From Sphingomonadales bacterium (GTDB taxonomy: Bacteria > Pseudomonadota > Alphaproteobacteria > Sphingomonadales > Sphingomonadaceae), in NCBI GenBank assembly GCA_038246995.1, contig JBBRVH010000001.1, positions 4,466 to 68,465 on the forward strand: a stretch of 64,000 bases of DNA. Reading direction: 5' to 3'. A program made the translations under genes and the position numbers. The notes under the pieces are model-generated. The model had not been told where the DNA came from and made no database searches. It saw nothing but the letters and a program-made list of their open reading frames with translations. Shown here one piece after another: positions 4,021-52,365 of the stretch. Each line of letters begins with the position of its first letter. Position 1 is the stretch's first letter.

Positions 4021-6564
4021 TCAGCCGAAAGTACGCTGCCACCAGCCCTTGCGCGGTGATGCGGCCGCGGTGTCGGCATCGGTGGCGGCCGCCGGCGTCG
4101 GTTCGGCGGCGGGTTCGGCGGCGGCTTCCGTGACCGGTGCTGCGGTTTCGGCGGCCTTGGGCTTGCGCGCACGCTTGGGCTTGACCTCGGCTGCGGGTTC
4201 TTCAACCACGGCCGCCACGGGTTCGGCGGCCTTGGCGGGCTTGGCCGCGGCGGGCTTGGCGGCCTTTGGCGCTGCAGGCTTGGCGACAGGCGCTTCGGCG
4301 ACGGGCTCGACCGCTACCGCTACCACCTTGGGCGCCGCCTTTGACGGGCGCTTGCGGGTGGTCCGTGCCGGCTTGGCTTCGGGCTCGGCGGCAGGTTCGG
4401 GCACAGCGACAGCAACCGGTGCGACATCGGGCACGGCTTCGACATCGGCCTTGCGGCGGCGGCTGCGCTTGGCCGGGGCTTCGGCGACGGCTTCGACCGC
4501 CGGGGGTGCTTCGGCAGCGGCTTCGGCTTCCGACGCAACGGCGGTTTCGGCCTTGTCGCCACTACGCTTGCCGCGACGGCCGCGCCGGCGGCGCTTGCGT
4601 TCACGATCACCGCGAGCTTCGGTTTCGGCCGACGTCTCGCCCGGCTGGGCCGTGGTTTCGGCTTCATCGGCATCGGCAGCATCATCGCCATCGACGGCGG
4701 TGTCTTCGGCGCTTTCGACTGCGGTTTCCGGTGCAGCGTCATCGCCGTTGCGGCCGCCGCGGCGGCGACGGCGCTTGTTGCGGCCGCCACGTTCGTTGCG
4801 GTCGCCGCGCTCACCCTGCGGGCGCTCGTCGCCATCCTCGTCATCGCCGTCGTCGATCACGTCGTCGGGGTCATCCTCGATGCGGACCAGCGCCGGCAGC
4901 GCCTGCATTTCGACCTTCTTCGTCGGCGGCGGGCCGCCGGCATCGATGGCGAAATTCGGGCCGATCAGGGCTTCATCGGGCACGGTGACGATGGTGACAC
5001 CGTAGAGTTCTTCCAGCTCGGCAAGCTCGATACGCTTGCGGTTGAGGATATAGACCGCGACCTCGTCGCCGGCGCGCAGGGTGAATTCCGACGCGCGGCC
5101 ACGCAGCGCTTCGGCTTCGAGCGCGCGCAGGGCCGCCAGAGCGGCGGACGAGACCGAGCGGACCATGCCGGTGCCTTCGCACATCGGGCAGATGTGGGTG
5201 GAGGCTTCCAGGATGCCGGTGCGCAGACGCTGGCGGCTCATTTCCATCAGGCCGAAGGCCGAAATGCGGCCGATCTGGATGCGGGCGCGGTCGTTGCGCA
5301 GCGCGTCCTTCATCGCCTTTTCGACGCGGCGGTTGTTGGCGGAAACTTCCATGTCGATGAAATCGATGACGACCAGCCCGGCCATGTCGCGCAGGCGCAA
5401 CTGGCGGCCGATTTCATCGGCGGCTTCAAGGTTGGTCTTGGTGGCGGTTTCCTCGATGCCATATTCGCGCGTCGAACGGCCGGAGTTGATGTCGATCGAC
5501 ACCAGCGCCTCGGTCGGGTTGATGACGATATAGCCGCCGGATTTGAGCTGGACGACCGGCTGATACATGCCTTCAAGCTGTTGTTCGACGCCAAAACGCT
5601 GGAACAACGGCACATTGTCGGAATATTCGACGACCTTGGGGGTGTGGCCGGGCATCAGCATCGACATGAAGCGCGAGGCATCGGCAAAACCTTCGGCGCC
5701 TTCGACGATGACCTGTTCGATATCGCGGTGATAGATGTCGCGGATGGCGCGCTTGATCAGGTCCGAATCCTGGTGGATCAGCGCCGGCGCCGATGAGGTG
5801 AGGGTGCGCTCGCGGATTTCATCCCACAGCCGGGTCAGATAATCGAAATCGCGGCGAATATCTTCGGACGAACGCTTCAGCCCGGCGGTGCGCACGATGG
5901 CGCCCATGCCCTGCGGCAGCTTGAGATCCGACATGATCGCCTTCAACCGCTTGCGATCGGCGATGTTGGAGATCTTGCGGCTGATGCCACCGCCATGCGC
6001 GGTATTGGGCATGAGCACGCAATAGCGGCCGGCGAGCGACAGATAGGTGGTCAGCGCTGCGCCCTTGGAGCCGCGTTCTTCCTTGACGACCTGGATCAGC
6101 AGCACCTGGCGGCGACGGATGACTTCCTGAATCTTGTAGCGGCGGCGCAGCGACTGGCGCTTGCGGCGCAGCGCGTCGGTCGGCTCGTCATGCTGGCCAC
6201 CGGTTTCGGCAACTTCGCCGACCGGATCGCCGTTTTCATCGAGATCTTCGTCGTGATGATCGTCGTGCTCGGCGGCATATTCGGCTTCTTCGCGGAGCAG
6301 CGCTTCGCGGTCCTCGCGCGGGATCTGGTAATAATCGGGATGGATTTCGCTAAAGGCGAGGAAGCCGTGACGGTTGCCGCCATATTCGACGAACGCCGCC
6401 TGCAGCGACGGTTCGACCCTTGTTACCTTGGCGAGATAGATATTACCCTTGAGCTGCTTCCTGTCGGCAGCTTCAAAGTCGAATTCCTCAATTCGTTGTC
6501 CATTGACCACGGCAACCCGGGTTTCTTCCGGGTGGCGGGCGTCGATCAGCATGCGAAGTGACAT
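4021..6564 (-). CDS. rne: ribonuclease E
   Basis: S1/catalytic N-terminus MLIDARHPEETRVAVVNGQRIEEFDFE...NIYLAKVTRVEPSLQAAFVEYG, Zn-link CPMCEGTG, and a long Arg/Ala/Pro/Lys-rich C-terminal scaffold. Start placed at ATG 6564 (MSLRMLID), not the ORF-track 6657. Confidence 0.95.
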   Translation of the reverse strand: MSLRMLIDARHPEETRVAVVNGQRIEEFDFEAADRKQLKGNIYLAKVTRVEPSLQAAFVEYGGNRHGFLAFSEIHPDYYQIPREDREALLREEAEYAAEHDDHHDEDLDENGDPVGEVAETGGQHDEPTDALRRKRQSLRRRYKIQEVIRRRQVLLIQVVKEERGSKGAALTTYLSLAGRYCVLMPNTAHGGGISRKISNIADRKRLKAIMSDLKLPQGMGAIVRTAGLKRSSEDIRRDFDYLTRLWDEIRERTLTSSAPALIHQDSDLIKRAIRDIYHRDIEQVIVEGAEGFADASRFMSMLMPGHTPKVVEYSDNVPLFQRFGVEQQLEGMYQPVVQLKSGGYIVINPTEALVSIDINSGRSTREYGIEETATKTNLEAADEIGRQLRLRDMAGLVVIDFIDMEVSANNRRVEKAMKDALRNDRARIQIGRISAFGLMEMSRQRLRTGILEASTHICPMCEGTGMVRSVSSAALAALRALEAEALRGRASEFTLRAGDEVAVYILNRKRIELAELEELYGVTIVTVPDEALIGPNFAIDAGGPPPTKKVEMQALPALVRIEDDPDDVIDDGDDEDGDERPQGERGDRNERGGRNKRRRRRGGRNGDDAAPETAVESAEDTAVDGDDAADADEAETTAQPGETSAETEARGDRERKRRRRGRRGKRSGDKAETAVASEAEAAAEAPPAVEAVAEAPAKRSRRRKADVEAVPDVAPVAVAVPEPAAEPEAKPARTTRKRPSKAAPKVVAVAVEPVAEAPVAKPAAPKAAKPAAAKPAKAAEPVAAVVEEPAAEVKPKRARKPKAAETAAPVTEAAAEPAAEPTPAAATDADTAAASPRKGWWQRTFG

Positions 6565-6971
6565 TATGGGGCTCCATGGCGCCGCGGCCGCCCCTTGCGG
6601 GGCACCGGCGGCGCATATTTCTGGCGTCGGCGCGGCGCTGTGCGGCCACGCTGACAATATGTTGCGGGATATGTGCGGTCAGGCCCGAATGATCCGCAGT
6701 CGCCGCCCATGGCTTGCCGGCCCGAAGGGCGGCCGCGCTTGAACGAAATGGCGAAACGATCATCCGACCCCTAAAATACGCCCGGCCTCGACCCCGGCCG
6801 GGTTGCGTGCCTCGCGGCGAGCTTCGGCGAACGCCACCCTTGCGGGCGACAGGACGAAACTGCCGGAAACAACAGCGGCCAAGCCACTGTTCAGCATAGT
6901 CGTAGCACGTGGATGCGGGGGGCGGCAAGGGCAGGTATCCGATGGGGAGCGTGCGCTGCCGGACACGCATG
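6565..6971 (-). promoter_or_regulatory. long rne promoter/5-prime leader region
   Basis: About 400 nt without a credible ORF between the rpsD terminator and the rne start. It contains GC hairpins, e.g. cccggcc..ggccggg near 6781-6805. Confidence 0.35.
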
Positions 6972-6999
6972 AAAAAGCCCGGGCAAAACCCGGGCTTTT
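6972..6999 (-). terminator. rho-independent terminator downstream of rpsD (bidirectional shape)
   Basis: aaaaa-GCCCGGG-caaaa-CCCGGGC-tttt. Stem 6977-6983 / 6989-6995, flanked by A and T runs, 54 nt after the rpsD stop. Confidence 0.7.
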
Positions 7000-7052
7000 C
7001 CAGAACCGGTACCGCCGGGGAACACCCCCGACGCCACACCGATCGCCGAGAC

Positions 7053-7664
7053 TCAGCGCGAATAGAATTCGACCACCAGGTTCGGCTCCATCTTCACCGG
7101 ATAGGGCACTTCATCAAGGGTCGGGACGCGGACATAGGTCGCCTTGGGCCCTTCGACCGCGACATATTCCGGCACTTCACGCTCGGTCAGGCCCTGCGCT
7201 TCCATGACCAGCGCCATTTCCTTCGCCTTGCTGCCGAGTTCGACGACATCGCCCGGCTTTACCTTGGCCGAGGCAATGTTGCAGCGGCGGCCGTTGACGA
7301 TGATGTGGCCATGATTGACGATCTGGCGGGCGGCAAAGATCGTCGGCGCGAACTTGGCGCGATAGACGACCATGTCGAGGCGCTGTTCGAGCAGGCCGAT
7401 GAGGTTCTGCGAGGTATCGCCCTTCATCTGCACGGCGGCCTGATAGGTGGCGCGGAACTGCTTTTCGGTGACATCGCCGTAATAGCCCTTGAGCTTCTGC
7501 TTGGCCTTCAGCTGGATGCCGAAATCCGACACCTTGCTCTTGCGGCGCTGGCCGTGCTGGCCCGGGCCATATTCGCGCTTGTTGACCGGCGACTTGGGGC
7601 GGCCCCAGATGTTTTCGCCCATGCGGCGATCGAGCTTGTACTTGCTGTTATGACGCTTCGACAT
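7053..7664 (-). CDS. rpsD: 30S ribosomal protein S4
   Basis: [49 protein letters not shown]... Start moved to ATG 7664. Confidence 0.95.
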
Positions 7665-33147: not shown

Positions 33148-34221
33148 ATGCGCAGACTGCTGATCGTCGGAGTGATGGGCCTCATGTCGACGATAGCTGC
33201 CGCCGCACCGATGCCGAAATCGGGGCCGGCGCTGCCGCCCCCTGCCCCGCCGATTGTCATCGCGCATCGCGGCGCCAGTGCCGATCGGCCCGAACACACG
33301 CTTGCCGCCTATGCCCTGGCCATCGAACAGGGGGCCGATTTCATCGAGCCCGACCTGGTGGCGACGAAAGATCGCCAGCTTGTCGCGCGCCATGAAAACG
33401 AGATTTCGGGCACGACCGATGTCGCCAGCCATCCCGAATTCGCCGATCGCAAGACAAGCAGGACCATCGACGGCGAACGCTTCACCGGCTGGTTCACCGA
33501 AGATTTCACCCTTGCCGAGTTGAAGACCCTGCGCGCCCGCGAACGCTTGCCGCAATTGCGCCCCGCCAACGCCGCCTTCGACGGGCAGGAATCGATCCCG
33601 ACGCTGGCGGAAATCATCGCGCTCGCCAGGCAAGCGACGCGCAAGACCGGGCGCACGATCGGCATCTATCCCGAAACCAAGCATCCCAGCCATTTCCGCA
33701 CGATCGGCCTGGCGCTTGAACCGCTGCTGCTCGCCGAACTGCAAACCGCCGGCTGGACGACGGCGGCAGCGCCGGTGTTCATCCAGTCGTTCGAAGTCCA
33801 GAACCTGAAGGATCTGCACGGCCAGACCGGCGTGCGGCTGATCCAGTTGATCGGTGACGGCATGTCGGGCGATGGCGTCGCCTATGATTCGCTCGTCACC
33901 CCGACGGGCCTCGCCGGGGTCGCCACCTATGCCGCCGGCATCGGTCCGGCGCGCGAACGGATAATCCCGCGCAGCGCCGCCGGCGTGCTTGGCACACCCA
34001 CGTCGCTGGTCGCGGATGCGCATGCCGCCGGGTTGCAAGTCCACCCCTGGACGTTCCGGCCGGAAAACTTCTTCCTGAGCGCACCGTACCGCCGCGGCAC
34101 CAACCCCGTGGATCGCGGCGACGCCGAAGCCGAAATCCGCCTTTATCTCGAAACCGGCATCGATGGCGTGTTCAGCGACCTGCCAGCCGCCGCCGTCGCT
34201 GCGATGGGGCCGGCAAAGTAA
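33148..34221 (+). CDS. glpQ: periplasmic glycerophosphodiester phosphodiesterase
   Basis: Signal peptide MRRLLIVGVMGLMSTIAAAA. IAHRGASADRPEHTLAAY...FIEPDLV catalytic motifs. Confidence 0.85.
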   Translation: MRRLLIVGVMGLMSTIAAAAPMPKSGPALPPPAPPIVIAHRGASADRPEHTLAAYALAIEQGADFIEPDLVATKDRQLVARHENEISGTTDVASHPEFADRKTSRTIDGERFTGWFTEDFTLAELKTLRARERLPQLRPANAAFDGQESIPTLAEIIALARQATRKTGRTIGIYPETKHPSHFRTIGLALEPLLLAELQTAGWTTAAAPVFIQSFEVQNLKDLHGQTGVRLIQLIGDGMSGDGVAYDSLVTPTGLAGVATYAAGIGPARERIIPRSAAGVLGTPTSLVADAHAAGLQVHPWTFRPENFFLSAPYRRGTNPVDRGDAEAEIRLYLETGIDGVFSDLPAAAVAAMGPAK

Positions 34222-34296
34222 AGGGCCTGGGCCCGTCTGCGCCCTCCCCGTTCCGGGTTCGCAGCGCTGATGCGGGGGCGGGAGAACAAAGCCCTG

Positions 34297-34740
34297 CTAC
34301 TTCGCCTCGGGCCAATCGAGCAGGAAGTTGATGTTCGCCGCCGCGATCGGCCGGCTGCGGTCGAATTGCCAGGCGCGGCTGCTGACATTGACGATGCGAC
34401 GGCCGAGCCTGGTGACTTCGGCGGCGGCGATGGTATCGATCGGTGTGCCTTCGCGCATGAAATCGACCGTAACGGTGACCGGTCGGATGCGCGGCAGGCG
34501 GGTCGCATCGGGTTGCGCGACGATCACCGCGGCCAGCCCGGCGATTTCGAGCAGCCCGGCCAGCGCACCGCCGTGGATGCGCCCCGGCGCGCCGACAAGG
34601 CCGATGGCGAAGGGCATGATCAGCCGGACTTCATCGTCATCCTGATCGAAACGCAGATCGAGCGCCCGGGCATAGGGCAGCATGTCGAGCCGGCCATGGC
34701 GTTCATCGCGCAGCGCGGCGGCAAGGGCGAGGCTGGTCAT
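34297..34740 (-). CDS. PaaI-family hotdog thioesterase
   Basis: GRIHGGALAGLLEIAG motif, 147 aa. Confidence 0.8.
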   Translation of the reverse strand: MTSLALAAALRDERHGRLDMLPYARALDLRFDQDDDEVRLIMPFAIGLVGAPGRIHGGALAGLLEIAGLAAVIVAQPDATRLPRIRPVTVTVDFMREGTPIDTIAAAEVTRLGRRIVNVSSRAWQFDRSRPIAAANINFLLDWPEAK

Positions 34741-35192
34741 GGCGCCGGCTGCTGCGCGGCAAACATAAACGTGCCTGCCATGTTGGCGATCGGGTTGGCC
34801 GGGTCGCCATCATGCGCCAGCCCGCGGACAAAGGCGATCTGGCGGGTGAGGCGATAGCATTCGGCGTGGCCGACCACCGTGACACCCGGCGCCGGCCCGC
34901 GCAGATAATCGACCCGCATGTCGAGCGTGGCGTGCGATACAAGTTCACCGCGCGCCACCAGCACGGCGAAGCCGGCGCTGTTGTCGAGCAGGGTGAAAAT
35001 CGCCCCCGAAGCGATGATGCCATAATCGGGGTCGGCAAGCTGTTGTTCGGCAAAGGGCATTTCCAGCTCGGCCCAATCCTTGCCATGGGCGCGATAGCCG
35101 ATGCCCATCAGCTTGAGATGCGGTACGCCATCCATGAAGCGCTGCATGAACCGCTGCTGGCGCGCCGCGGCTTTTTCGGCGTCTGCGGTCAT
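34737..35192 (-). CDS. PaaI-family hotdog thioesterase
   Basis: IIASGAIFTLLDNSAGFAV motif. ATGA-type overlaps on both sides. Confidence 0.8.
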   Translation of the reverse strand: MTADAEKAAARQQRFMQRFMDGVPHLKLMGIGYRAHGKDWAELEMPFAEQQLADPDYGIIASGAIFTLLDNSAGFAVLVARGELVSHATLDMRVDYLRGPAPGVTVVGHAECYRLTRQIAFVRGLAHDGDPANPIANMAGTFMFAAQQPAP

Positions 35193-35602
35193 GCGGCACT
35201 GGCCTGCGCCAGTTCGCCGATGCGTGCGATCATCGAGGCGAGCCCCTGGGTCCGGTTCGACGACAGATGCTTCGACAGGCCGAGCCCATCGAGCCGGGCG
35301 CGGATCTCGGCCGTGTCGATCGCCGCTGGCGCACGATCGTCGGCGAGCAGGAGCACCAGTGCCACAAGGCCCTTGACGATCGCTGCATCGCTGTCGGCGG
35401 CGAAATGCAGCCGGCCCTCGGCAAGGCGCGGGTGCAGCCAGACCTGGCTGGCGCAGCCGCGCACGCGGGTGGCATCGGTTTTCAGGGCGTCGGGCATCGG
35501 TGGCAAGGCGCGGCCAAGGTCGATCAACAACCGGTAACGGTCATCCCAATCGTCGAAGGCGTCGAATTCGGCCTCGACATCGTCAAAAGTCGCGATGCTC
35601 AT
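35189..35602 (-). CDS. sufE: SufE-like cysteine desulfuration protein
   Basis: DDRYRLLIDLG...VRGCASQVWL active-site Cys motif. Confidence 0.85.
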   Translation of the reverse strand: MSIATFDDVEAEFDAFDDWDDRYRLLIDLGRALPPMPDALKTDATRVRGCASQVWLHPRLAEGRLHFAADSDAAIVKGLVALVLLLADDRAPAAIDTAEIRARLDGLGLSKHLSSNRTQGLASMIARIGELAQASAA

Positions 35603-35660
35603 CCCGACAGCGTTTGCGGAAGGCAGCGGCGGGGGTCAAGCCGCGCAGCGTCGCAGCGTT

Positions 35661-35897
35661 CTAAAAATCGACCCCGGCGGCGATCGCCTCCAGCTTACGG
35701 ATGCGTTCCTTCAAATCGGCAAGATCGATGCGCTGGCCGATGGCGGGCAGGTCATGGCCGTCGCCGCGCAACAGTTCGAGCTCGCGGGCCCGCAATCGCA
35801 GCCAGCCGGCCCAGGCCCAGGCGGCAAAGCCGGCGACAAGGCCGATGCCGGCAAGCGTGGCGCTCGACAGGATCAGCAGGGAATCGATTGGTGGCAT
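35661..35897 (-). CDS. PspB-like single-pass membrane protein, array copy 6 (most divergent)
   Basis: 78 aa. TM LLILSSATLAGIGLVAGFAAWAWAGW, C-terminus LKERIRKLEAIAAGVDF. SD GGGAGGA. Confidence 0.6.
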   Translation of the reverse strand: MPPIDSLLILSSATLAGIGLVAGFAAWAWAGWLRLRARELELLRGDGHDLPAIGQRIDLADLKERIRKLEAIAAGVDF

Positions 35898-35954
35898 GGT
35901 CGGTCCTCCCTAATGGTCTGAATGGGGGGTTCAGGGGTGGCGGGGCAAAGGGGT

Positions 35955-36233
35955 TCAGTCGCGTTTCAGGCTTTCGATCTCATCCGACAGGCGCCTGGCC
36001 GGGTCGGTGGCGATGCGTTCGAGTACGGCAAGACGTTCATTGAGGCGGGTGATCTCGGCCTTCATGCGGTCGGACTCCACGGCGCTGACGCCATCGGGAT
36101 CGGCCATCAGGGTGCGCCCCTGCCACTTGCCGTCACGCTTCGACAGGCGCGGGTTCACGCCCAGGCGGGCGCTGAGAATCTTGCCGATCGTCACGATCAA
36201 CACGATGCCGATAACCATTTCGAACGGATTCAT
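35955..36233 (-). CDS. PspB/PspC-zipper-like single-pass membrane protein, array copy 5
   Basis: 92 aa. TM MVIGIVLIVTIGKIL, C-terminus TRLNERLAVLERIATDPARRLSDEIESLKRD. SD AGGAAAG. Confidence 0.7.
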   Translation of the reverse strand: MNPFEMVIGIVLIVTIGKILSARLGVNPRLSKRDGKWQGRTLMADPDGVSAVESDRMKAEITRLNERLAVLERIATDPARRLSDEIESLKRD

Positions 36234-36293
36234 CGTTGGGGCTTTCCTGTGGCCGGGGGCAGGCCGGAGAAGAAGGGAAGGGTGTTCGGCAGG

Positions 36294-36620
36294 TCAGTTG
36301 AGCGCCTTGGGCTGCAAATTGTCGATTTCATCGGCAAGCCTGGTGCCGCGATCGACGGCGATGCGTTCGAGCACCTGCAACCGGTCCTTCATGCTGCCGA
36401 CTTCGGCGCGCAACTGGGCATTTTCCTGCGCCAGCAGCTTGACGCGTTCCATCGTCTCGCCGCCGCCGTGCGGCAGCATCGGCTTGCCCGAGCTGCTTTC
36501 CAGCGGGTAGCCGTTCTTGACGCGCAGCCACACGGTGGTCACCCAGCCGATGGTGCCGATGAAGACGGCGCTGACGCCGACGGGGGCAATCGCTTCGATC
36601 ATGGCGGGGTCGAGAGCCAT
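36294..36620 (-). CDS. PspB/PspC-zipper-like single-pass membrane protein, array copy 4
   Basis: 108 aa. TM VSAVFIGTIGWVTTVWL, then KNGYPLE, C-terminus MKDRLQVLERIAVDRGTRLADEIDNLQ. SD GAGGAA. Confidence 0.7.
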   Translation of the reverse strand: MALDPAMIEAIAPVGVSAVFIGTIGWVTTVWLRVKNGYPLESSSGKPMLPHGGGETMERVKLLAQENAQLRAEVGSMKDRLQVLERIAVDRGTRLADEIDNLQPKALN

Positions 36621-36631
36621 CGGATTGTTCC

Positions 36632-36907
36632 TCAGTTGATCTTGTCGGGGAGCGCCGGCGTGTCGCGCAGGCTTTCGATCTGCGCGGTCAGGCCTTCGTT
36701 GCGGTCGGTGACGATGCGATTGAGCACCGCGACGCGTTCTTCGAGCCGTTCGATCTTGGCGGCATATTGCGCCGCCTGTTCACCGGCGGTGCGTGCCGTG
36801 ATCTCCAACTGCTTTTCCTTCATCGCGATCCATTTGGTCACGACATTGGACAGGATGGCGATGATCGGGATCAGGAAGACCAGGATCGGTACCATGTAAT
36901 TCCACAT
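36632..36907 (-). CDS. PspB/PspC-zipper-like single-pass membrane protein, array copy 3
   Basis: 91 aa. TM VPILVFLIPIIAILSNVV, C-terminus ERLEERVAVLNRIVTDRNEGLTAQIESLRD. SD AGGGAGA. Confidence 0.7.
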   Translation of the reverse strand: MWNYMVPILVFLIPIIAILSNVVTKWIAMKEKQLEITARTAGEQAAQYAAKIERLEERVAVLNRIVTDRNEGLTAQIESLRDTPALPDKIN

Positions 36908-36929
36908 CGAAAATCTCCCTTGAGCCGCG

Positions 36930-37223
36930 TCAGTCGCGCAGTTTCTCGATTTCGGCGGTCAGCCGGAGCGGCGTGTCGGTGGCGATGCGTTCGAGCACCG
37001 CAACGCGTTCCTCCACCCGGCCGAGCTTGCCCCGCAGCGCTTCATTGTCGCGTTCGAGAATCTCGTTCTGGCGCTTGAGATCGAGATCATCCTTGCGCGT
37101 CTGGCCACTCCATTCGTTTTCGAGCGGGTAGCCGTGCCTGGCACGGATGGCGGTGGTGACGATCCAGCTGATAAAGCTCATCGCGATAATGGCGAGAACA
37201 AATTCGGGGCCTGCGAAGTCCAT
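36930..37223 (-). CDS. PspB/PspC-zipper-like single-pass membrane protein, array copy 2
   Basis: 97 aa. TM FVLAIIAMSFISWIVTTAI, then RHGYPLE, C-terminus VEERVAVLERIATDTPLRLTAEIEKLRD. SD AAGGA. Confidence 0.75.
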   Translation of the reverse strand: MDFAGPEFVLAIIAMSFISWIVTTAIRARHGYPLENEWSGQTRKDDLDLKRQNEILERDNEALRGKLGRVEERVAVLERIATDTPLRLTAEIEKLRD

Positions 37224-37247
37224 TGTTCACATCCTTGTCGGGCGATT

Positions 37248-37532
37248 TCAGTCGCGCAGTTTCTCGATTTCGGCAGACAGCCGGTCGGGGGTGTCGGTGG
37301 CGATGCGTTCCATCACCGCCATGCGTTCTTCCAGCCGGGCGACCTTGCCGCGCAACTTGGCGTTGTCCTGCTCCAGCTCGCTGGTCAGGGCGCGGGCTTC
37401 GACATCCTTGATGCGCTTGCCACCGAGCGAGAAGCCGTTCTTGCGGGCCTCCAGCTCCATCCCGGCGCGCACGATGCGCCCGACGACAACGATCGCGACA
37501 ATCACGATCACGAAAATCATGCCACTCGACAT
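37248..37532 (-). CDS. PspB/PspC-zipper-like single-pass membrane protein, array copy 1
   Basis: 94 aa. TM MIFVIVIVAIVVVGRIV, C-terminus LEERMAVMERIATDTPDRLSAEIEKLRD. SD GGGGAGAGAG. Confidence 0.75.
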   Translation of the reverse strand: MSSGMIFVIVIVAIVVVGRIVRAGMELEARKNGFSLGGKRIKDVEARALTSELEQDNAKLRGKVARLEERMAVMERIATDTPDRLSAEIEKLRD

Positions 37533-37559
37533 CGTCTCTCTCCCCCTCGCAGCCAGCGC

Positions 37560-37940
37560 CTAGCGCAGGCTGTCTATTTCGTTGGCCAGGCTGCGGTTCG
37601 ACGAGGTCACATAGGCCTCGATATCGCGCAGCCGGCGGTCGGATTCGCGAAAGGACGCATGGACGTCGCGCACGGTGCGCTGCGGCGCCACCCGCACATT
37701 CTTCCAGAACTGCTTGTCCTCCAGGCTTTCGTTGTACAGCATCGTCGGCTTGGGATCGGCGATCCAGCCGATGGCGAGATAGATGATCGGCAGGAAGCCG
37801 ACCCCCATCACCATCGCAGCGACGACGCCAACGCGTACCCAGGTCGGTTCCCAGCCGAAATAATCGGCGATGCCGGCGCAGACCCCCATGAAGCGCTTGT
37901 TGCGCTTGTCGAGGTAGAAACGAGTGCGGCGAACGCTCAT
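37560..37940 (-). CDS. pspC: envelope stress response membrane protein PspC (long form with C-terminal zipper)
   Basis: PspC domain FMGVCAGIADYFGWEPTWVRVGVVAAMV...IIYLAIGWI and C-terminus RRLRDIEAYVTSSNRSLANEIDSLR (compare E. coli RLREMERYVTSD). Confidence 0.85.
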   Translation of the reverse strand: MSVRRTRFYLDKRNKRFMGVCAGIADYFGWEPTWVRVGVVAAMVMGVGFLPIIYLAIGWIADPKPTMLYNESLEDKQFWKNVRVAPQRTVRDVHASFRESDRRLRDIEAYVTSSNRSLANEIDSLR

Positions 37941-37965
37941 GGCGTGTGTCCCTGTTACGACGAGA

Positions 37966-38166
37966 TCAAGCAGACCGGCTGGAGGCGATGAGCCCGATCA
38001 GCAGGTAGATGATGACCGGCGAGCCGAAGCCGACGACCATCGCAAAGAGAAAGCCGACGCGAAACCAGATCGGATCGGCGCCGAAGTAATTGGCAAGTCC
38101 GGCACAAACGCCCATGATCTTGCCATTGGTCTTGTCGAGGCGGAACGGGCCGCGGACGGTCAACAT
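37966..38166 (-). CDS. PspC-domain-only small membrane protein
   Basis: 66 aa. IMGVCAGLANYFGADPIWFRVGFLFAMVVGFGSPVIIYLLIGLI, with no zipper tail. Confidence 0.8.
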   Translation of the reverse strand: MLTVRGPFRLDKTNGKIMGVCAGLANYFGADPIWFRVGFLFAMVVGFGSPVIIYLLIGLIASSRSA

Positions 38167-38193
38167 CGGTCTATCCCTTGCGTTGGCTGAAAT

Positions 38194-38478
38194 TCAGCGC
38201 AGTTCCTGGCGATCGCTGCGGTCGGGGATCCGACCGGCGGAAAGATCGGCCAGGCGCCCGTCCTTCCAGTTGGGGTTGTCGGCGGCGATGATGCGCTCGA
38301 TCGATTCGAGCCGGCCATCGAGCCGCCGCGCCATTTCATGGAGATCGTCGAGCAGCACTTCATCCTGCTGGCTGATGCCGCGGCCGGATTTCCACTTGGT
38401 CAGATAATGGAGCACCAGCCAGGGCAGGCCGATGAACAGCATGCCGACGATGGGAATGGCGATAAAGGATTCGTCCAT
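38194..38478 (-). CDS. pspB: envelope stress response membrane protein PspB
   Basis: IPIVGMLFIGLPWLVLHYLTKWKSG...RLESIERIIAADNPNW matches the PspB pattern. Starts 4 nt after the pspA stop. Confidence 0.85.
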   Translation of the reverse strand: MDESFIAIPIVGMLFIGLPWLVLHYLTKWKSGRGISQQDEVLLDDLHEMARRLDGRLESIERIIAADNPNWKDGRLADLSAGRIPDRSDRQELR

Positions 38479-38482
38479 CGTC

Positions 38483-39157
38483 TCAACCTTCCGACTTGGG
38501 CGACAGGCGCGCCTTCATGGCCGCCAGTTCGCGGCTGACATCATCATCCGCCGATAGATCGGCGAATTCATCGGCGAGCGTGCGCGGCGGGCCGCCCAAA
38601 GACAGCGCATCGGCGCGGCCTTCGGCCAGATCGGCGCGGCGCTCCATGATCTCGAAGCGGGCAAAGGCTTCATCGACGCGCGGGCCTTTGGTCATCTCGA
38701 TAAGCTTGCTGCGGTTGGTCGCCGATTCGATGCGATTGAGAATGACGTTCTGGCGGGTGCGCGCCTCGCGAAGCTTGCCTTCCAGCTTGTGGATATCGGC
38801 TTCGTTGAGCGCGAGGCCCTGGTCGAGTGCCGCGATTTCACCCTGCATCTGGTCGGCAAAGCCCTTGGCCTTGGCCTTTTCGACCAAAGCCGCCTTGGCC
38901 AGATCCTCACGGCCCTTCGACAAGGCGAGCTCGGCCTTTTCGGCCCAGCTTGCCTGCGCGGCTTCGGCGCGGATCACCGCGCGCCGCATTTCCTTCTGGT
39001 CGGCAATGGTGCGCGCCGCCGAGGCGCGGACTTCGACCAGCGTTTCCTCCATCTCCATGATGATCATGCGGATCATCTTGGCCGGGTCTTCGGCCCGGTC
39101 GAGAAGGTCGGTGACGTTGGCGGCGATGATATCGCGGGTCCGCGAAAAAATGCCCAT
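38483..39157 (-). CDS. pspA: phage shock protein A (PspA/IM30 family)
   Basis: MGIFSRTRDIIAANVTDLLDRAEDPAKMIRMIIMEMEETLVEVR. Start moved to ATG 39157. Confidence 0.9.
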   Translation of the reverse strand: MGIFSRTRDIIAANVTDLLDRAEDPAKMIRMIIMEMEETLVEVRASAARTIADQKEMRRAVIRAEAAQASWAEKAELALSKGREDLAKAALVEKAKAKGFADQMQGEIAALDQGLALNEADIHKLEGKLREARTRQNVILNRIESATNRSKLIEMTKGPRVDEAFARFEIMERRADLAEGRADALSLGGPPRTLADEFADLSADDDVSRELAAMKARLSPKSEG

Positions 39158-39254
39158 GGTGGTGTTGCTCCAGTGCTTCAAATTGGGGCCGGAGGGGGAG
39201 GCGAGGGGGAGGGGGAAACCCCTGACCAAAGCCCCTCCGGCGATCGCCGGCGGG

Positions 39255-39431
39255 TTATTCCCCGCGGACGATATTCGAATTCGAGACGGAATTCACGCTG
39301 TTGTTCGAGCCATGCGGTGCAGCTACGGCCGGGCCGGCAGCAGCAACCAGGAAAGTGGCGCTGATCACGAGAGCGGCGGCGGCGCTGACAAGGCTGCGGA
39401 GCGTGTCGTTGCTGTTGAAGAAGTTGGTCAT
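39255..39431 (-). CDS. unannotated 58-aa ORF with signal-peptide-like N-terminus, first cistron after the psp sigma-54 promoter
   Basis: Below the ORF-track length cutoff, translated by hand codon by codon: MTNFFNSNDTLRSLVSAAAALVISATFLVAAAGPAVAAPHGSNNSVNSVSNSNIVRGE, ending in TAA. SD-like GAAGGA 7 nt upstream. Confidence 0.5.
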   Translation of the reverse strand: MTNFFNSNDTLRSLVSAAAALVISATFLVAAAGPAVAAPHGSNNSVNSVSNSNIVRGE

Positions 39432-39497
39432 TTCACGGTCCTTCGAGTGTCTGGTTGGCGGCTGGCGGGAATGTCCGGCCGCTCATGCCAAGAGTAT

Positions 39498-39513
39498 TGC
39501 AAAGGCCGTGCCA
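39498..39513 (-). promoter_or_regulatory. sigma-54 (-24/-12) promoter of the psp operon
   Basis: Minus strand reads TGGCAC-GGCCT-TTGCA, an exact fit to TGGCAC-N5-TTGCW. It points toward the small ORF and pspA and is divergent from pspF. Confidence 0.8.
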
Positions 39514-39624
39514 ACCGGCGGAAACTACATAAGATATTGAAAAGATTGGATACAGCCAGCCAAGTGGAGTTTATTTTTACTGAACCCTTGCTGAATATTG
39601 GGAAATTGCACTAACTTTGGGGCC

Positions 39625-40662
39625 ATGGCGAAACCTGTAGCCCTGATCGGTTCCTCCTCGATCTTCCTCGATGCGGTCGAACGCGCCTCGGCCGCGGCGA
39701 CGCTCAACCGCCCGGTGCTTGTCATCGGCGAACGCGGCACCGGCAAGGAACTCATCGCCGAGCGTCTCCATCGCCTCAGCCCACGCTGGGGCGGGCCGCT
39801 CGTGTCGCTCAACTGTGCGGCGCTGCCCGAAAACCTCATCGATGCCGAATTGTTCGGTTATGAAGCCGGCGCCTTCACCGGCGCCGCCCGGGCCCGCGCC
39901 GGCCGCTTTGAAGATGCCGACGGCGGCACGCTGTTCCTCGATGAAATCGGCACGCTGTCACCGGCGGCGCAGGAACGTCTTTTGCGCGTCGTCGAATATG
40001 GCGAATTGACCCGCATCGGCTCCAACCGCGCCATTGCCGTCGATGTGCGCCTTGTCGGCGCCACCAACGAAGATCTTCCCGGCATGGTGACGCGCGGTCG
40101 CTTTCGTGCCGATCTGCTCGACCGGCTGTCGTTCGAAGTCGTCACCCTGCCCCCGCTCAGGGAAAGAGCGGAGGACATCGAGGTACTCGCGACGCATTTT
40201 GCCCGGCGCATGGCCGCCGAACTCGGCTGGTCGCGTTTCCCGGGCTTCACCGACAAGGCAACGGCGTTGCTCGACAGCTATGCCTGGCCGGGCAATGTTC
40301 GCGAACTGAAGAATGTCGTCGAACGCTCCTTGTATCGCTGGGGCGATGCCGACACGCCGGTCGGGCGGATCATCCTCGATCCGTTCGAATCGCCGTGGCG
40401 GCCGGCGCCATTGCCCGGCACCGCCCATGCGATCGGTGCCGCCCCGGCGTCGATCAACCCGATCGCCGAAGCCGCCGCGCTGCCGGCGCCGGCACTGACC
40501 GGTGTCAGCGATTTTCGCGCCGCGGTGCTCGCCTATGAACGCGACATCCTGCTCGCGGCGCTCGACCGCTGCCGCCACAACCAGCGCCGCACCGCCGCGG
40601 CACTGGCGCTGAGCTATGACCAGTTGCGCCACGCGCTGAAGCGCCATGACCTGCTCGAATAG
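39625..40662 (+). CDS. pspF: sigma-54-dependent activator PspF (AAA+ domain plus HTH, no receiver/sensor domain)
   Basis: LIGSSSIFLDAVERASAAATLNRPVLVIGERGTGKELIA, GAFTGA loop (ELFGYEAGAFTGA), C-terminal HTH RRTAAALALSYDQLRHALKRH. Start at ATG 39625. Confidence 0.9.
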   Translation: MAKPVALIGSSSIFLDAVERASAAATLNRPVLVIGERGTGKELIAERLHRLSPRWGGPLVSLNCAALPENLIDAELFGYEAGAFTGAARARAGRFEDADGGTLFLDEIGTLSPAAQERLLRVVEYGELTRIGSNRAIAVDVRLVGATNEDLPGMVTRGRFRADLLDRLSFEVVTLPPLRERAEDIEVLATHFARRMAAELGWSRFPGFTDKATALLDSYAWPGNVRELKNVVERSLYRWGDADTPVGRIILDPFESPWRPAPLPGTAHAIGAAPASINPIAEAAALPAPALTGVSDFRAAVLAYERDILLAALDRCRHNQRRTAAALALSYDQLRHALKRHDLLE

Positions 40663-40708
40663 CCTGTCGCGACCTGGCCGCTGGCGCCGGGTGGCGCGCG
40701 CTGTCGCG

Positions 40709-41503
40709 ATGCACCGCCTGTTGGTCGTTTTCGTACCATTGCTGGGCGCTGCAGCGCCGGCAACCGCCGGTGATGACACGGCAAGCGCTCGCACCATCAT
40801 CGCCCGCGCCTTTGCCGCGGCTGGCGGCGATGGCTGGGCCCGCGCCCGCACCCTCATCCTGTCGGGCCGCGCCGTGTTCTACGGCGGTGGCGCTGCGCCA
40901 CGCCGGGTTGCCGATGACTACCGCATGTGGCGGGTGTTCAAGGATGCCCGCATCGCTGCCCATGGCGAAGCCGGCCAGGTACGCATCGAGGCGCGCCACC
41001 AGGGCAAGCCGCTGTTCCTTGTCGGGTCCGACGGCACGACCAGTTTCAACGAAAATGGCATCATTCCCAAGGCGCAAGCCGATGCCTTCTGGGCGAGCAA
41101 CTTCGGCTTCGGCGTCATCCGCTCGGCGCTCGGCCCGGGGTTCAGGCTCGACCGCCTGCCCGATGACAGCGTGGATGGCCATCCGGCCTGGATGGTGCGG
41201 GTGACCGATCCGGCGGGCACGGCAACGCTGTTCGGCATCGACAAGGCCAGTGCCGCGATCCGGCTCGCCGGTTTCGCCACGCCGCGCGGCTGGCATGTGC
41301 GGATTTATGATGATTTCGTGCGGCTGAAGAACCCCGCCTGGCTGCAGGCTCGCAAGGTCACGCTCTATTACAATGGGGTCAAGGCCAACGAGGTCTTCTG
41401 GACGGACTTCAAGGTCAACGCGCCCGTCCCGCCAGACCTGTTCACGCCCCCAGATCGAGCCCGTGCTTCTTCAACAGCGGCACCTGGAGGATCGCAAAAA
41501 TAA
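40709..41503 (+). CDS. secreted hypothetical protein
   Basis: Signal peptide MHRLLVVFVPLLGAAAPATAGDD. About 265 aa with no motif I recognise. The 3-prime end overlaps the convergent yciB by 62 nt. Confidence 0.5.
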   Translation: MHRLLVVFVPLLGAAAPATAGDDTASARTIIARAFAAAGGDGWARARTLILSGRAVFYGGGAAPRRVADDYRMWRVFKDARIAAHGEAGQVRIEARHQGKPLFLVGSDGTTSFNENGIIPKAQADAFWASNFGFGVIRSALGPGFRLDRLPDDSVDGHPAWMVRVTDPAGTATLFGIDKASAAIRLAGFATPRGWHVRIYDDFVRLKNPAWLQARKVTLYYNGVKANEVFWTDFKVNAPVPPDLFTPPDRARASSTAAPGGSQK

Positions 41504-48898: not shown

Positions 48899-50497
48899 AT
48901 GCAATATTGGCAGCGAATCCTGACCGGGCTGGCGCTGGCACTCCTGGGGTCGCCTGTGCTGGCCGCGGGCATGTTGCCGACCCCGGCGCGGGCGGCGGGA
49001 GAGGCCGATGGCCCCTATCCCCTGCTCGTCATCCGCGGCGCCACCATCATCGCCGGCAATGGCGGCCCGCCCTATGGCCCCGCCGACATCATCGTCAAGG
49101 GCGGCCGCATCGCGGAAATCCGCTCCGCCGGCACGCCGGGCCTGCCGCTGCGCGCGAACCGTGAACCGCAGGGGGCGGCTCGCGAAATCGACGCCACCGG
49201 CATGTACGTCATGCCCGGCTTTGTCGACATGCACGGCCATAATGGCGCTGCGGACAAGGCCAACGACCCGAGCTATGCCTATCGCCTATGGCTGGCACAT
49301 GGCGTCACCACGGTACGCGGCGTGTCGTTCTTCGGTGGTGACACCGCCCATGCCCTCGATGACAAGCGCCGCAGCGCCGCCGGCGAGATCACGGCGCCGC
49401 GGCTTTTCGTCTATCAGACGCTCGGCTCGGGCTGGACCGGCGGGCGCGTGCAGACGCCCGAAAAGGCCCGCGAATGGGTGCGCTGGGCCGCAAAGGCCGG
49501 CATCGACGGCATCAAGTTCTTCAACAAGGACGACGAAACGCCCGAAATCGACCGCGCCGCCATCGACGAGGCGAAAAAGCTCGGCCTCGGCACCGTCGCG
49601 CATCTGTCGCAACCCAATGTCGCCGAATTCAACGCCCGCGATGCCGCTGCGGCCGGGCTCGGCACCGTCACGCATTTCTATGGCCATTTCGAAGCGCTGC
49701 TGAAGGACCGCCGCACCCAGGACACGCCGGCAGAGTATAATTACAACGACGAACAACTGCGTTTCGGCGGCATCGCCGACATCTGGAACCAGATTCACGA
49801 ACCCGGCGGGCCGGAATGGGTCGATTATCTCAAGGCCCAAAAGGCGGCCGGCGTCACCTTCGATCCGACCTTCAACATCTACAGCGCCAGCCGCGACCTG
49901 ATGCGGGCAAAAAACGCCGATTGGCACGCCCAATACGCGCTGCCGTCGATGACGCGCTTTTATGAATCGAACCGCGACAACCATGGCAGCTATTTTTACG
50001 ACTGGACGACGGCGCGCGAGGTCAGCTGGCGCAATTTCTATGGTCGCTACATGCGGTTGATCAATGATTACAAGAATATGGGCGGTCGCGTCACGACCGG
50101 CAGTGACCCCGGCTTCATCTACCAGCTCTGGGGCTTCGGCTATGTCCTCGAGCTCGAAATGCTCCAGGAAGCCGGCTTTTCACCGCTCGAAGTCATCCAG
50201 TCGGCGACAATCAACGGCGCGCGCACGCTCAATGACCCCGAGGGCCAGGAACCGCAATTCGGCCTCGTCCGCGCCGGCATGATCGCCGATCTCGTCATCG
50301 TGCCGGAAAACCCGCTGGCCAATTTCAAGACGCTCTATGGCACCGGTTTTGCGAGGCTCAATCCTGCCACCAACAAATCAGAAACCGTCGGCGGCGTGCG
50401 CTGGACGATCAAGGACGGCATGGTCTTCGATGCCCCGGCGCTCCTCAGATCGGTGGCGGACCAGGTGGCGCGCGAAAAGGCGGCATCGCGCCCCTGA
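48899..50497 (+). CDS. secreted amidohydrolase-family protein
   Basis: Signal peptide LALALLGSPVLAAG. Metal-binding PGFVDMHGH. Confidence 0.8.
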   Translation: MQYWQRILTGLALALLGSPVLAAGMLPTPARAAGEADGPYPLLVIRGATIIAGNGGPPYGPADIIVKGGRIAEIRSAGTPGLPLRANREPQGAAREIDATGMYVMPGFVDMHGHNGAADKANDPSYAYRLWLAHGVTTVRGVSFFGGDTAHALDDKRRSAAGEITAPRLFVYQTLGSGWTGGRVQTPEKAREWVRWAAKAGIDGIKFFNKDDETPEIDRAAIDEAKKLGLGTVAHLSQPNVAEFNARDAAAAGLGTVTHFYGHFEALLKDRRTQDTPAEYNYNDEQLRFGGIADIWNQIHEPGGPEWVDYLKAQKAAGVTFDPTFNIYSASRDLMRAKNADWHAQYALPSMTRFYESNRDNHGSYFYDWTTAREVSWRNFYGRYMRLINDYKNMGGRVTTGSDPGFIYQLWGFGYVLELEMLQEAGFSPLEVIQSATINGARTLNDPEGQEPQFGLVRAGMIADLVIVPENPLANFKTLYGTGFARLNPATNKSETVGGVRWTIKDGMVFDAPALLRSVADQVAREKAASRP

Positions 50498-50712: not shown

Positions 50713-52365
50713 ATGACCACCACGCTCAGTATCGCCCTTGCCCAGTTGAATGCCGTTGTCGGCGGCCTCGATGCCAATGCCGATGCGATTCTGGCGGCGC
50801 GCGCCGCCGTGCCGGGGGCCGATCTGCTGGTCACCCCCGAACTGTCGGTGATCGGCTATCCACCCGAAGACCTGGTGCTCAAGCCCGCGCTTGTTGCCGC
50901 CGGCATGGCACGCGTCCAACGGCTGGCCGCCGCCACCGCCGATGGCGGCCCGGCATTGCTCGTCGGCGCGCCGCTGGCAGAAAATGGCCGGCTGCACAAT
51001 GCCATGTTCCTGCTCGATGGCGGCCGCATCGCCGGGATCACGCGCAAGCACGACCTGCCCAATTATGGCACGTTCGATGAAAAGCGGGTGTTTTCGCCCG
51101 GCCCGCTGCCCGGCCCGCTGGCGTTTCGCGGCGCCCGGCTCGGGGTGCCGATCTGCGAGGATATCTGGACCCCCGATGTCACCGAATGTCTTGCCGAAAC
51201 CGGTGCCGACATCCTTGTCGTTCCCAACGGCTCGCCGTTCGAAACCGGCAAGGACGACCGGCGGTTGAGCCTGGCTGTCGCCCGCGTCACCGAAACCGGG
51301 TTGCCGATGATCTATCTCAACCGCGTCGGCGGCCAGGATGAACTGGTCTTCGATGGCGCGAGCTTTGTCCTCAATGCCGATCGCAAGCTGGCGCTGCAGC
51401 TGCCCGACTGGGACGAAGTCGTGCAGATGACGCACTGGACCCGCACCGGCGACCACTGGGCCTGTGCGCCCGGCGCCATCGCGCCGCGCGATGACGACCC
51501 GGCCGATATCTACCACGCCATGCTCGTCGCGCTGCGCGACTATGTGAACCGCAATGGCTTTCCCGGCGTCGTCCTCGGCCTGTCGGGCGGCATCGATTCG
51601 GCGCTGTCGGCGGCGGTCGCGGTCGATGCGCTGGGCGCCAACCGGGTGTGGTGCGTGATGATGCCATCGCCCTATACCAGCCAGGACAGCCTGGAGGATG
51701 CGGCCGAATGCGCGCGGCTGCTTGGTTGCCGGCTCGATACCGTCGGCATCGGCCCCGCCATGGACGCCTTTGGCACCATGCTGGCACCGCTGTTCACGGG
51801 CCGCACGCCCGATACGACCGAGGAAAATATCCAGTCGCGCATCCGCGGCCTGTCGCTGATGGCGATCAGCAACAAGTTCGGCCCGATGCTGCTGACCACC
51901 GGCAACAAGAGCGAGATGAGCGTCGGCTATGCCACCATCTATGGCGACATGGCCGGCGGCTATTCGGTGCTCAAGGACGTCTACAAGACCACCGTGTTCA
52001 AGCTGTGCGAATGGCGCAACCACCATCATCCGCGCCTGTCGATCGGCCCGAAAGGCCCGGTCATGCCGCAGCGAGTGATCGACAAGCCGCCGACCGCCGA
52101 ACTGCGCGACAACCAGAAGGACGCCGACAGCCTGCCGCCGTATGACCTGCTCGATCGCATCCTGATCGGCCTTGTCGAAAACGAGCGCGCTGCCGCCGAG
52201 CTGATCGCCGAAGGCATCGACCCGGCCATCGTCGCGCGCATCGAACGCCTGCTCTACATCGCCGAATACAAGCGCCGCCAGGCCCCGCCGGGGGTGAAGA
52301 TCGGCCATCGCAACTTCGGGCGTGACCGTCGTTACCCGATTTCCAACGCTTTCCGGACCGCGTGA
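50713..52365 (+). CDS. nadE: glutamine-dependent NAD+ synthetase
   Basis: N-terminal CN-hydrolase domain (ICEDIW) plus the synthetase P-loop GLSGGIDSA. Confidence 0.9.
   Translation: MTTTLSIALAQLNAVVGGLDANADAILAARAAVPGADLLVTPELSVIGYPPEDLVLKPALVAAGMARVQRLAAATADGGPALLVGAPLAENGRLHNAMFLLDGGRIAGITRKHDLPNYGTFDEKRVFSPGPLPGPLAFRGARLGVPICEDIWTPDVTECLAETGADILVVPNGSPFETGKDDRRLSLAVARVTETGLPMIYLNRVGGQDELVFDGASFVLNADRKLALQLPDWDEVVQMTHWTRTGDHWACAPGAIAPRDDDPADIYHAMLVALRDYVNRNGFPGVVLGLSGGIDSALSAAVAVDALGANRVWCVMMPSPYTSQDSLEDAAECARLLGCRLDTVGIGPAMDAFGTMLAPLFTGRTPDTTEENIQSRIRGLSLMAISNKFGPMLLTTGNKSEMSVGYATIYGDMAGGYSVLKDVYKTTVFKLCEWRNHHHPRLSIGPKGPVMPQRVIDKPPTAELRDNQKDADSLPPYDLLDRILIGLVENERAAAELIAEGIDPAIVARIERLLYIAEYKRRQAPPGVKIGHRNFGRDRRYPISNAFRTA

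Follow-up and report, generated by a model that had tools for sequence, protein, structure and literature searches.

A conserved array of small zipper-bearing membrane proteins in the psp operons of Sphingomonadales

Signaling by the Psp (phage shock protein) pathway is understood almost entirely from Escherichia coli and Yersinia, in which one PspB and one PspC gate PspA. The psp operon of a Sphingomonadales bacterium (assembly GCA_038246995.1, contig JBBRVH010000001.1; the 64,000-nucleotide stretch analyzed here, positions 4,466 to 68,465, is termed the window) contains additional small genes. Downstream of its pspA-pspB-pspC-pspC genes, and on the same strand, lie six small open reading frames (ORFs), termed below the minis m1 to m6, which an earlier note made from the nucleotide sequence had interpreted as a lineage-specific expansion of single-pass membrane proteins bearing zipper-like helices. 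All six are on the minus strand, encode proteins of 78-108 amino acids (aa), and have coordinates exactly as given in that note; the group letters below refer to the paralog classification presented further on.

37248-37532, minus strand: m1 (group F), 94 aa, ATG start; a recent clade-specific duplicate
36930-37223, minus strand: m2 (group A), 97 aa, ATG start; universal core paralog with a juxtamembrane GYPLE motif
36632-36907, minus strand: m3 (group D), 91 aa, ATG start; most PspB-like paralog
36294-36620, minus strand: m4 (group E), 108 aa, ATG start; GYPLE motif
35955-36233, minus strand: m5 (group B), 92 aa, ATG start
35661-35897, minus strand: m6 (group C), 78 aa, ATG start; divergent terminal paralog

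The genes are tightly packed, with 27 nucleotides (nt) between pspC and m1 and successive gaps of 24, 22, 11, 60 and 57 nt from m1 to m6. The details reported in the earlier note were all borne out. Its six Shine-Dalgarno strings (GGGGAGAGAG, AAGGA, AGGGAGA, GAGGAA, AGGAAAG and GGGAGGA for m1 to m6) were all located, 5-12 nt 5' of the respective start codons. Each mini possesses one hydrophobic segment, which is N-terminal, and multiple alignments recovered the proposed heptad-like C-terminal end common to the minis, of the form ...RLxERxAVLERIATD...RLxxEIExLR, with m6 being shortened and divergent and without the LxxEIExLR tail. The GYPLE motif ascribed to the second and fourth copies was likewise seen in the alignments of m2 and m4, and both this motif and the C-terminal one are kept across orthologs, the consensus of group E (m4) being KnGYPLeg.WG. 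At the DNA level the core encoding VLERIA (plus-strand GGCGATGCGTTC or a variant thereof) was found at exactly the five positions claimed, namely 36009, 36357, 36710, 36981 and 37299, which are its only sites in the window.

The fivefold recurrence of a short nucleotide core with a period of about 270-350 bp could by itself suggest that these ORFs are non-functional, being either by-products of a tandem DNA repeat or decaying fragments of pspC. Against this, the frames are kept across many genera and the copies are just 44-63 % identical to each other in nucleotides, with the protein motifs nevertheless persisting. It is clearly the reading frames, and not merely the repeat, that related genomes conserve, because the ratio of non-synonymous to synonymous substitution rates (dN/dS), computed for the genes of the window against orthologs from six loci, is 0.02-0.63 and mostly 0.1-0.3 across all six genes (0.06-0.36 for m1 and 0.03-0.23 for m6), well below 1. 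Every ORF possesses both a Shine-Dalgarno sequence and an ATG start, and the minis are called as genes by independent pipelines in relatives. The GC content at third codon positions of the six frames is 0.77-0.86, as in the flanking psp genes, and the long ORFs facing them on the other strand are shadows of the kind common in high-GC DNA. The six ORFs are genuine genes, and the notion that they are repeat by-products or pspC debris is effectively refuted.

Related loci, 88 in all, were collected, a genome search with m1, m2 and m5 as queries supplying the best 80 of at least 260 matches. The first 85 were mapped using ORFs and hidden Markov models (HMMs), and the other three were checked by gene calls and group-specific HMMs; since the maps use the longest ORF, some gene lengths in them are overestimated and a few pspB and pspC calls are masked by overlapping ORFs. 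The minis adjoin psp genes in 88 of the 88 loci, wherever the flanks reach, and the common pattern wherever the contig reaches is a divergent pspF, then pspA-pspB-pspC, then the minis. The loci include those of Polymorphobacter (P. fuscus), Sandarakinorhabdus, Sphingopyxis, Sphingorhabdus, Parasphingorhabdus, Sphingomonas, Sphingosinicella, Allosphingosinicella, Sphingomicrobium and Stakelama, together with metagenome-assembled genomes (MAGs). Minis follow pspC in 1-7 copies, 4-6 being the commonest numbers (85 loci, some on truncated contigs), and the expansion posited for this lineage holds at the level of the order Sphingomonadales in the 85-88 loci surveyed. Genes for SufE and two thioesterases usually occur downstream of the array in the 85 mapped loci. 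This psp-sufE synteny is seen in nearly all of them and apparently also in Zymomonas mobilis, in which ZMO1067 is SufE (PMC7064620) and a single gene, ZMO1066, occupies the position of the array; a search of the Zymomonas literature found no mention of ZMO1066. One locus (L086) is devoid of sufE and has other downstream genes, and still displays six minis after pspC; hence, the conserved partner of the minis is psp rather than sufE.

In protein databases, a profile of the six copies recovered a family numbering no fewer than 7,757 clusters when grouped at 90 % identity, whose members are nearly all 96-108 aa long, contain no Pfam domain and are either called 'hypothetical' or mis-named FtsB. 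An exhaustive HMMER scan of 1.84 billion representatives yielded 1,798 clusters (50 % identity) at E<=1e-3, of which 193 reached E<=1e-10. The name FtsB/DivIC, given in some JGI records, was not supported, as no FtsB/DivIC profile was among the Pfam or NCBIfam hits of the minis at E<=1. A few records are unusual. Three database proteins comprise chains of two mini units (P0001, 177 aa; P0126, 163 aa; P0142, 175 aa), and the region 5849-7384 of one locus (L088) shows overlapping, frameshifted mini ORFs along with a PspC of 237 aa continuing into a group-D unit. Either real gene fusions, of PspC with a mini or of two minis, or artefacts of assembly or frameshifting could account for such cases. 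Two MAGs bear unexpected labels: contigs assigned to 'Synechococcus sp. UW140' (L022, CALRKY020000008.1) and to 'Maricaulis salignorans' (L054, CALRLP020000002.1) each carry a typical Sphingomonadales pspF-pspABC-minis-sufE locus, that of L054 having the gene order of the Sphingorhabdus loci with near-identical ORF lengths. Both are probably mis-binned contigs or mislabeled bins. A 1776-aa protein of the dinoflagellate Effrenium voratum (P0129, CAJ1370721.1) contains 14 repeats in tandem (…QLSQLEGRLVQVEEVSPEPVQQLTASVDELRSK…), which score against the mini profile with an overall E-value of 9e-19; this match is most likely compositional or due to a convergent coiled coil, and therefore calls for caution with low-scoring hits to the profile.

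Clustering of 407 copies from the loci resolved five large groups, A (94 copies), B (88), C (75), D (69) and E (67), which are ancient and differentiated paralogs. Group A (m2) is found in every one of the 85 surveyed loci. The order of the paralogs is conserved as A-(E/D)-B-C, with lineage-specific losses and duplications; group C (m6, 75 orthologs) is usually the last in the array, and D and E are swapped between lineages, with A-D-E-B-C in the Polymorphobacter/Sandarakinorhabdus clade, including the window, and A-E-D-B-C in most others. At L086 the paralogs run B'-D-E-A-B-C, and there is an additional copy that is extended at its N-terminus. The remaining small group, F (m1), has 8 members. 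As all of these are in the closest relatives and the group is absent from two other loci (L004 and L005), m1 is a recent clade-specific duplicate that supplies the sixth copy. In protein sequence it is 54 % identical to m2, with the 3' 90 nt being markedly more similar than the remainder of the gene.

The earlier note had pointed to the identity of the first 27 plus-strand nt of m2 (from 36930) and m1 (from 37248) as a sign of recent duplication or gene conversion. The identity is exact and the duplication is in keeping with the distribution of group F. Gene conversion is not required as an explanation: codon identity at identical residues of m1 and m2 is 0.65, within the 0.50-0.71 seen in other pairs, and the identical m1/m2 run from the stop codon in relatives is 1-15 nt. 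The 27-nt identity is accounted for by strong residue conservation combined with the strong codon bias of the genome.

What, then, are the minis related to? In scans against Pfam and NCBIfam the best PspB score was that of m3, which obtained 24.0 bits (E 3.4e-5) with TIGR02976, whose cutoff is 51.7, and 11.7 bits with PF06667, whose cutoff is 25.6; the other five had no PspB hit in these libraries at E<=1. Four minis (m1, m2, m3 and m5) gave sub-threshold hits to the PspC model TIGR02978, all confined to its C-terminal part (profile positions ~53-121). The N-terminal domain of PspC is an amphipathic/cryptic TM region with a conserved Arg; its model PF04024, with which the neighboring PspCs score 58-62 bits, hits none of the six. 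Other weak hits in these libraries were to generic zippers (bZIP, HALZ, ZapB, GpsB; E 0.01-0.3). Profile-profile comparisons were then made with sets drawn from the loci (407 minis, 83 PspB and 102 long PspC sequences), for which the single-template E-values of hhalign are effectively P-values. The pooled minis matched the last 39 residues of PspC (88-126) with a probability of 93.8 % (E 1.6e-7) and the zipper core of PspB with 93.3 % (E 2.6e-7, 29 columns), and the mini HMM directly matched 42 long PspCs from the transmembrane (TM) helix through the C-terminus.

The individual groups differ in these affinities. Group A matched PspC with 93.4 % over 75 columns, encompassing the TM helix and the tail, and groups E and B did so with 93.6 % and 89.3 %; the corresponding PspB matches were 90.5 % for group D (63 columns), 88.7 % for A, 71.9 % for B, 59.6 % for E and 1.9 % for C. 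Among themselves, groups A, E, D and B match at 98.5-99.9 % (99.9 % between E and A, 99.0-99.7 % between B and the other three). A direct comparison of PspB with the tail of PspC within Sphingomonadales gave no significant match (2 %). These comparisons suggest that the minis are bridging intermediates that link PspB to the PspC tail, that most of the paralogs appear nearer to the PspC TM and tail than to PspB, and that the zipper and TM segment of the minis are probably a diverged copy of the PspB/PspC TM plus C-terminal module. The relationship to PspB and to the C-terminus of PspC that the earlier note had read from shared motifs is consistent with the sub-threshold library hits and the profile-profile matches.

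The membrane topology follows from the distribution of charges in the 407 copies. The N-terminal flank of the hydrophobic segment has on average 0.02-0.57 lysine or arginine (K/R) residues and is often acidic, and the 15 residues after the segment contain 2-4 K/R; by the positive-inside rule, this predicts an N-out/C-in topology, the orientation of PspB, with a cytoplasmic zipper. A different possibility is that the N-terminal helix is a cleaved signal peptide and that the zippers are soluble and periplasmic. The hydrophobic segment does lie at the extreme N-terminus, and four Erythrobacter copies are labeled SIG+PspB in Table S3 of a published survey (Ravi et al. 2024, discussed below), a label that denotes a predicted signal peptide and would put the zipper in the periplasm. 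However, the near absence of K/R from the N-flank, where acidic residues are common, argues against a cleaved signal peptide, which would be expected to show a positively charged n-region, and the K/R residues just past the helix point the other way. The hydrophobic stretch is of TM length (about 19-25 residues), the corresponding helix of the AlphaFold2 model described below covers 6-30, and genuine PspB is laid out in the same manner. We therefore consider the signal-peptide interpretation highly improbable.

An AlphaFold2 model of m2, made with a 67-sequence alignment, displays a TM helix (6-30), a low-confidence linker (31-42) that contains GYPLENEW and a single 53-residue helix (44-96). 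Along this last helix hydrophobic peaks occur at HMM columns 62, 66, 69, 73, 76 and 79/80, and then at 87, 91 and 94, a periodicity of 3.5-3.6 residues corresponding to the a/d spacing of heptads, with a break at the TD motif. A search of PDB sequences recovered generic coiled coils only (BICD, GCN4, prefoldin; E>0.04). On this model, a lone, long amphipathic helix would be expected to pair with partners.

The setting of the array offers clues regarding how it might be controlled. The genes and the promoter element upstream of it are the following:

39598..40662, plus strand: pspF, sigma-54 enhancer-binding activator, divergent; TIGR02974 476.9 bits against a cutoff of 443.55, a curated equivalog
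39499..39513, minus strand: sigma-54 -24/-12 element TGGCACGGCCTTTGC, an exact TGGCAC-N5-TTGC
39255..39431, minus strand: X, hydrophobic ORF of 58 aa, the first gene after the promoter and before pspA
38483..39157, minus strand: pspA; TIGR02977 262 bits, PF04012 126 bits
38194..38478, minus strand: pspB; PF06667 84.7 bits, TIGR02976 82 bits
37966..38166, minus strand: short PspC, 66 aa; PF04024 58 bits, TIGR02978 positions 7-60 only
37560..37940, minus strand: long PspC, 126 aa, with zipper tail; TIGR02978 123.8 bits, full length

The PspF protein has its AAA+ domain from residue 16 and, like PspF of E. coli, is without an N-terminal sensor domain. The exact TGGCAC-N5-TTGC occurs twice in the 64 kb window, once ahead of this operon, and an element with at most one mismatch is present in 69 of 73 related loci, at a median position of 355 nt upstream of pspA, as opposed to 1 of 66 control segments. 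On the minus strand from pspA through m6, no sigma-70-like promoter was predicted, and the sole terminator-like site there is weak and overlaps the m6 stop. Given the exact promoter upstream and no convincing internal promoter or terminator, the simplest reading is that X-pspA-pspB-pspC-pspC-m1..m6 constitute one PspF/sigma-54-dependent operon, with co-transcription from the sigma-54 promoter being inferred; the sigma-54/PspF setting envisaged in the earlier note is thus upheld by the promoter element and the PspF assignment. A terminator after m6 was not supported, as the weak candidate folds no better than expected from shuffles (z = -0.87), and a Rfam search of 34000-41000 returned no match.

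Several neighboring features may be noted alongside. The protein X (MTNFFNSND...AAAGPAVAAP...) has a conserved (A/V)GPA after its hydrophobic stretch and matched no Pfam or NCBIfam family; its homologs lie at the same position in at least 41 of the 73 related loci, and the gene calls of relatives include it. The Zymomonas mobilis genes ZMO1061-1065 comprise pspF, one hypothetical gene, pspA, pspB and pspC, with pspABC being ethanol-induced (PMC3495753). X is probably both ZMO1062 and the gene labeled 'X' in Table S3 of Ravi et al., and may be an uncharacterized first gene of the Sphingomonadales psp operon. The short PspC consists of the PF04024 N-domain and a TM segment without the zipper tail; as a gene of its own it was detected in the majority of the closest (Polymorphobacter-clade) loci and in no others. 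Together with the minis, which have a TM and tail only, it gives an operon that holds both halves of PspC as separate genes. Past m6, at 58 nt, sufE (PF02657) and two 4HBT-type thioesterase genes occupy 34297-35602 (minus strand), and there is no convincing terminator between m6 and sufE. The second exact TGGCAC-N5-TTGC (50338-50352, plus strand) is situated about 375 nt upstream of an ORF for a NAD+ synthetase-like protein of 550 aa (50713-52365), within the 3' end of another, amidohydrolase-like ORF (48899-50497), and may be due to chance.

These observations bear on the potential mechanism of the minis when set against the enteric paradigm. As summarized in PMC5596341, PspB and PspC of Yersinia and E. 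coli form an inner-membrane complex that is switched on by stress: in the off state their cytoplasmic domains are in contact and the system is silent, and in the on state PspA docks on the C-terminal domain of PspC (in Yersinia), thereby releasing PspF. We consider it reasonably likely that the minis use their zippers to partner with PspA, PspB, PspC or one another, and in this way add to or diversify the sites at the membrane where PspA is captured. Under this proposal, each mini would be a bitopic protein of the inner membrane, composed of a TM at the N-terminus, a short juxtamembrane linker and a long, cytoplasmic, amphipathic zipper helix. These zippers would pair with PspB, PspC, each other and/or PspA. 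Being products of the induced operon itself, the minis would add membrane-anchored sites upon induction, which would titrate PspA off PspF and might hold it at the membrane in the manner in which LiaI anchors LiaH. The reality of the genes, their place in the operon, the predicted topology, the heptad helix, the probable remote homology and the conservation across the order come from computation; that the genes are co-transcribed, which proteins the minis bind and what this does to regulation are the parts that we infer. The presence of five anciently diverged paralogs with different juxtamembrane segments suggests hetero-oligomeric assembly or differentiated inputs rather than simple dosage.

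Certain results weigh against the capture of PspA by the minis and the homology on which it builds. No mini reaches the curated PspB or PspC cutoffs in the Pfam and NCBIfam scans, and group C (m6) has no significant direct match to either protein, being linked to the other minis via groups D (94.6 %) and B (81.7 %) only. The remote homology is drawn from 29-75 columns of coiled-coil-like sequence. Most reversed-sequence controls gave less than 8 %, although a single one rose to 46 % (E 2e-4), leaving a margin of just 2-3 orders of magnitude, and the homology is for this reason given here as probable and not as certain. The AlphaFold2 model is that of a monomer and of moderate confidence (predicted local distance difference test 73, predicted template modeling score 0.30). 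Searches of the literature on Zymomonas, Sphingomonas wittichii and Novosphingobium found induction of pspABC in Zymomonas, and no transcript, proteomic, interaction or phenotype data for the minis.

The main competing explanation is that the minis are PspB-like and that their zippers occupy the C-terminal domain of PspC or each other, by which they would silence or buffer the response, making them an induced negative-feedback damper that resets the switch. The alignment of group D with PspB over its full length (90.5 %), the PspB-like architecture of an N-out TM with a cytoplasmic helix in a protein of 78-108 aa, and the assignment of the minis to the PspB domain by Ravi et al. are all in line with such a role. 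Groups A, E and B, on the other hand, are nearer to the PspC tail, including the terminal LxxEIExLR that PspB lacks, and on balance a damper appears unlikely. A still less probable alternative is that the minis are stress effectors independent of PspA, PspB and PspC, whose oligomers stabilize or seal the inner membrane in a PspD/PspG-like fashion, with the zipper serving self-assembly. Five ancient orthogroups in a fixed order under purifying selection, the conservation in A and E of a GYPLE.EWGG segment that has no counterpart in PspB or PspC, and the simple predicted structure of a TM helix followed by a long helix would all fit effectors of this kind. Yet the conserved segment is precisely the one shared with the interaction domains of PspB and PspC, and the linkage to psp is strict in all surveyed loci.

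The preferred interpretation, in which the minis offer capture sites for PspA, might also be extended, although we regard the extension as speculative and unlikely to hold in full. Here, A, E, D, B and C would be non-redundant and, along with PspB and PspC, would build a defined platform of hetero-oligomeric coiled coils at the cytoplasmic side of the inner membrane; each juxtamembrane segment (e.g. GYPLE.EWGG in A and E) would sense a distinct membrane perturbation, and the platform would nucleate or pattern the ESCRT-III-like PspA polymer. If true, the Psp switch would here be scaffolded and take multiple inputs, in contrast to the enterobacterial model with one PspB and one PspC.

The earlier note knew of no description of such an array, yet one has been published. 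Table S3 of Ravi et al. 2024 (mSystems 9:e00847-23, PMC11237479) has a row for Erythrobacter litoralis (AOL22920.1) with the same architecture, <-PspF X->PspA->PspB->PspC+PspB->, followed by five small PspB-like genes. The authors label these copies as duplicates of PspB in the operon and describe the C-terminus of PspC as a divergent PspB domain. Their account of the array comprises one clause and one table row on a single species, this being the sole such row in Table S3, and gives neither a survey nor orthogroups nor a function. The paper of Popp et al. 2022 (PMC9239133) makes no mention of alphaproteobacterial or Sphingomonadales arrays. Thus, the phenomenon is already in print, and the window adds an instance and a broader survey rather than a discovery. 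What is added to the published statement is the order-wide conservation, the five orthogroups with a universal group A, the apparently closer kinship of most paralogs with the PspC TM and tail, the predicted N-out/C-in topology and the conserved sigma-54 promoter ahead of X.

The wider import of this lies in that a whole order appears to keep 2-7 extra PspB/PspC interaction modules in its psp operon, with their arrangement fixed and the selection on them purifying, which we take to argue that the stoichiometry or combinatorics of zippers matters for the capture of PspA at the membrane. The Sphingomonadales include Zymomonas, Sphingomonas and Sphingopyxis, which are of use in biotechnology and bioremediation. 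Neither Pfam nor NCBIfam has a model of the mini family, whose members go by FtsB or Zn-ribbon protein in some JGI records; given the family's size, its formal definition would correct thousands of annotations.

In comparison with known systems, LiaI of Bacillus subtilis, which PMC11237479 mentions, is a small membrane protein that is co-induced with the PspA homolog LiaH and serves as its membrane anchor. It offers a functional analogy only, as it has no sequence relationship to the minis and differs in its TM organization, and to our knowledge LiaI does not occur as an array of paralogs. The enterobacterial PspD and PspG resemble the minis in being small, lineage-restricted proteins encoded alongside pspABC and expressed from PspF-dependent promoters; they are, however, single-copy and unrelated in sequence, with no PspD or PspG match among the Pfam and NCBIfam hits of the minis. 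With PspC the minis share the alignment of its last 39 residues, in group A inclusive of the TM helix, but they are without the N-terminal PspC domain (PF04024) that defines that family. Their likeness to PspB extends to a single N-out TM, a cytoplasmic helix, similar size, an operon controlled by pspF and the core motif RLxxRxxxhERIhxxD; most minis differ from PspB in adding a terminal LxxEIExLR and in being without its 'NPNW' motif, and a true PspB is encoded in the mini-bearing operon as well. The E. litoralis locus, finally, is also from the Sphingomonadales and shares with the window the divergent pspF, X, pspA-pspB-pspC with its tail, and the small genes; this equivalence is drawn from architecture and taxonomy, with no Erythrobacter among the best 80 of at least 260 matches. 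It has five small genes, as against the six of the window, one of which is recent, and the window possesses an extra short PspC in addition.

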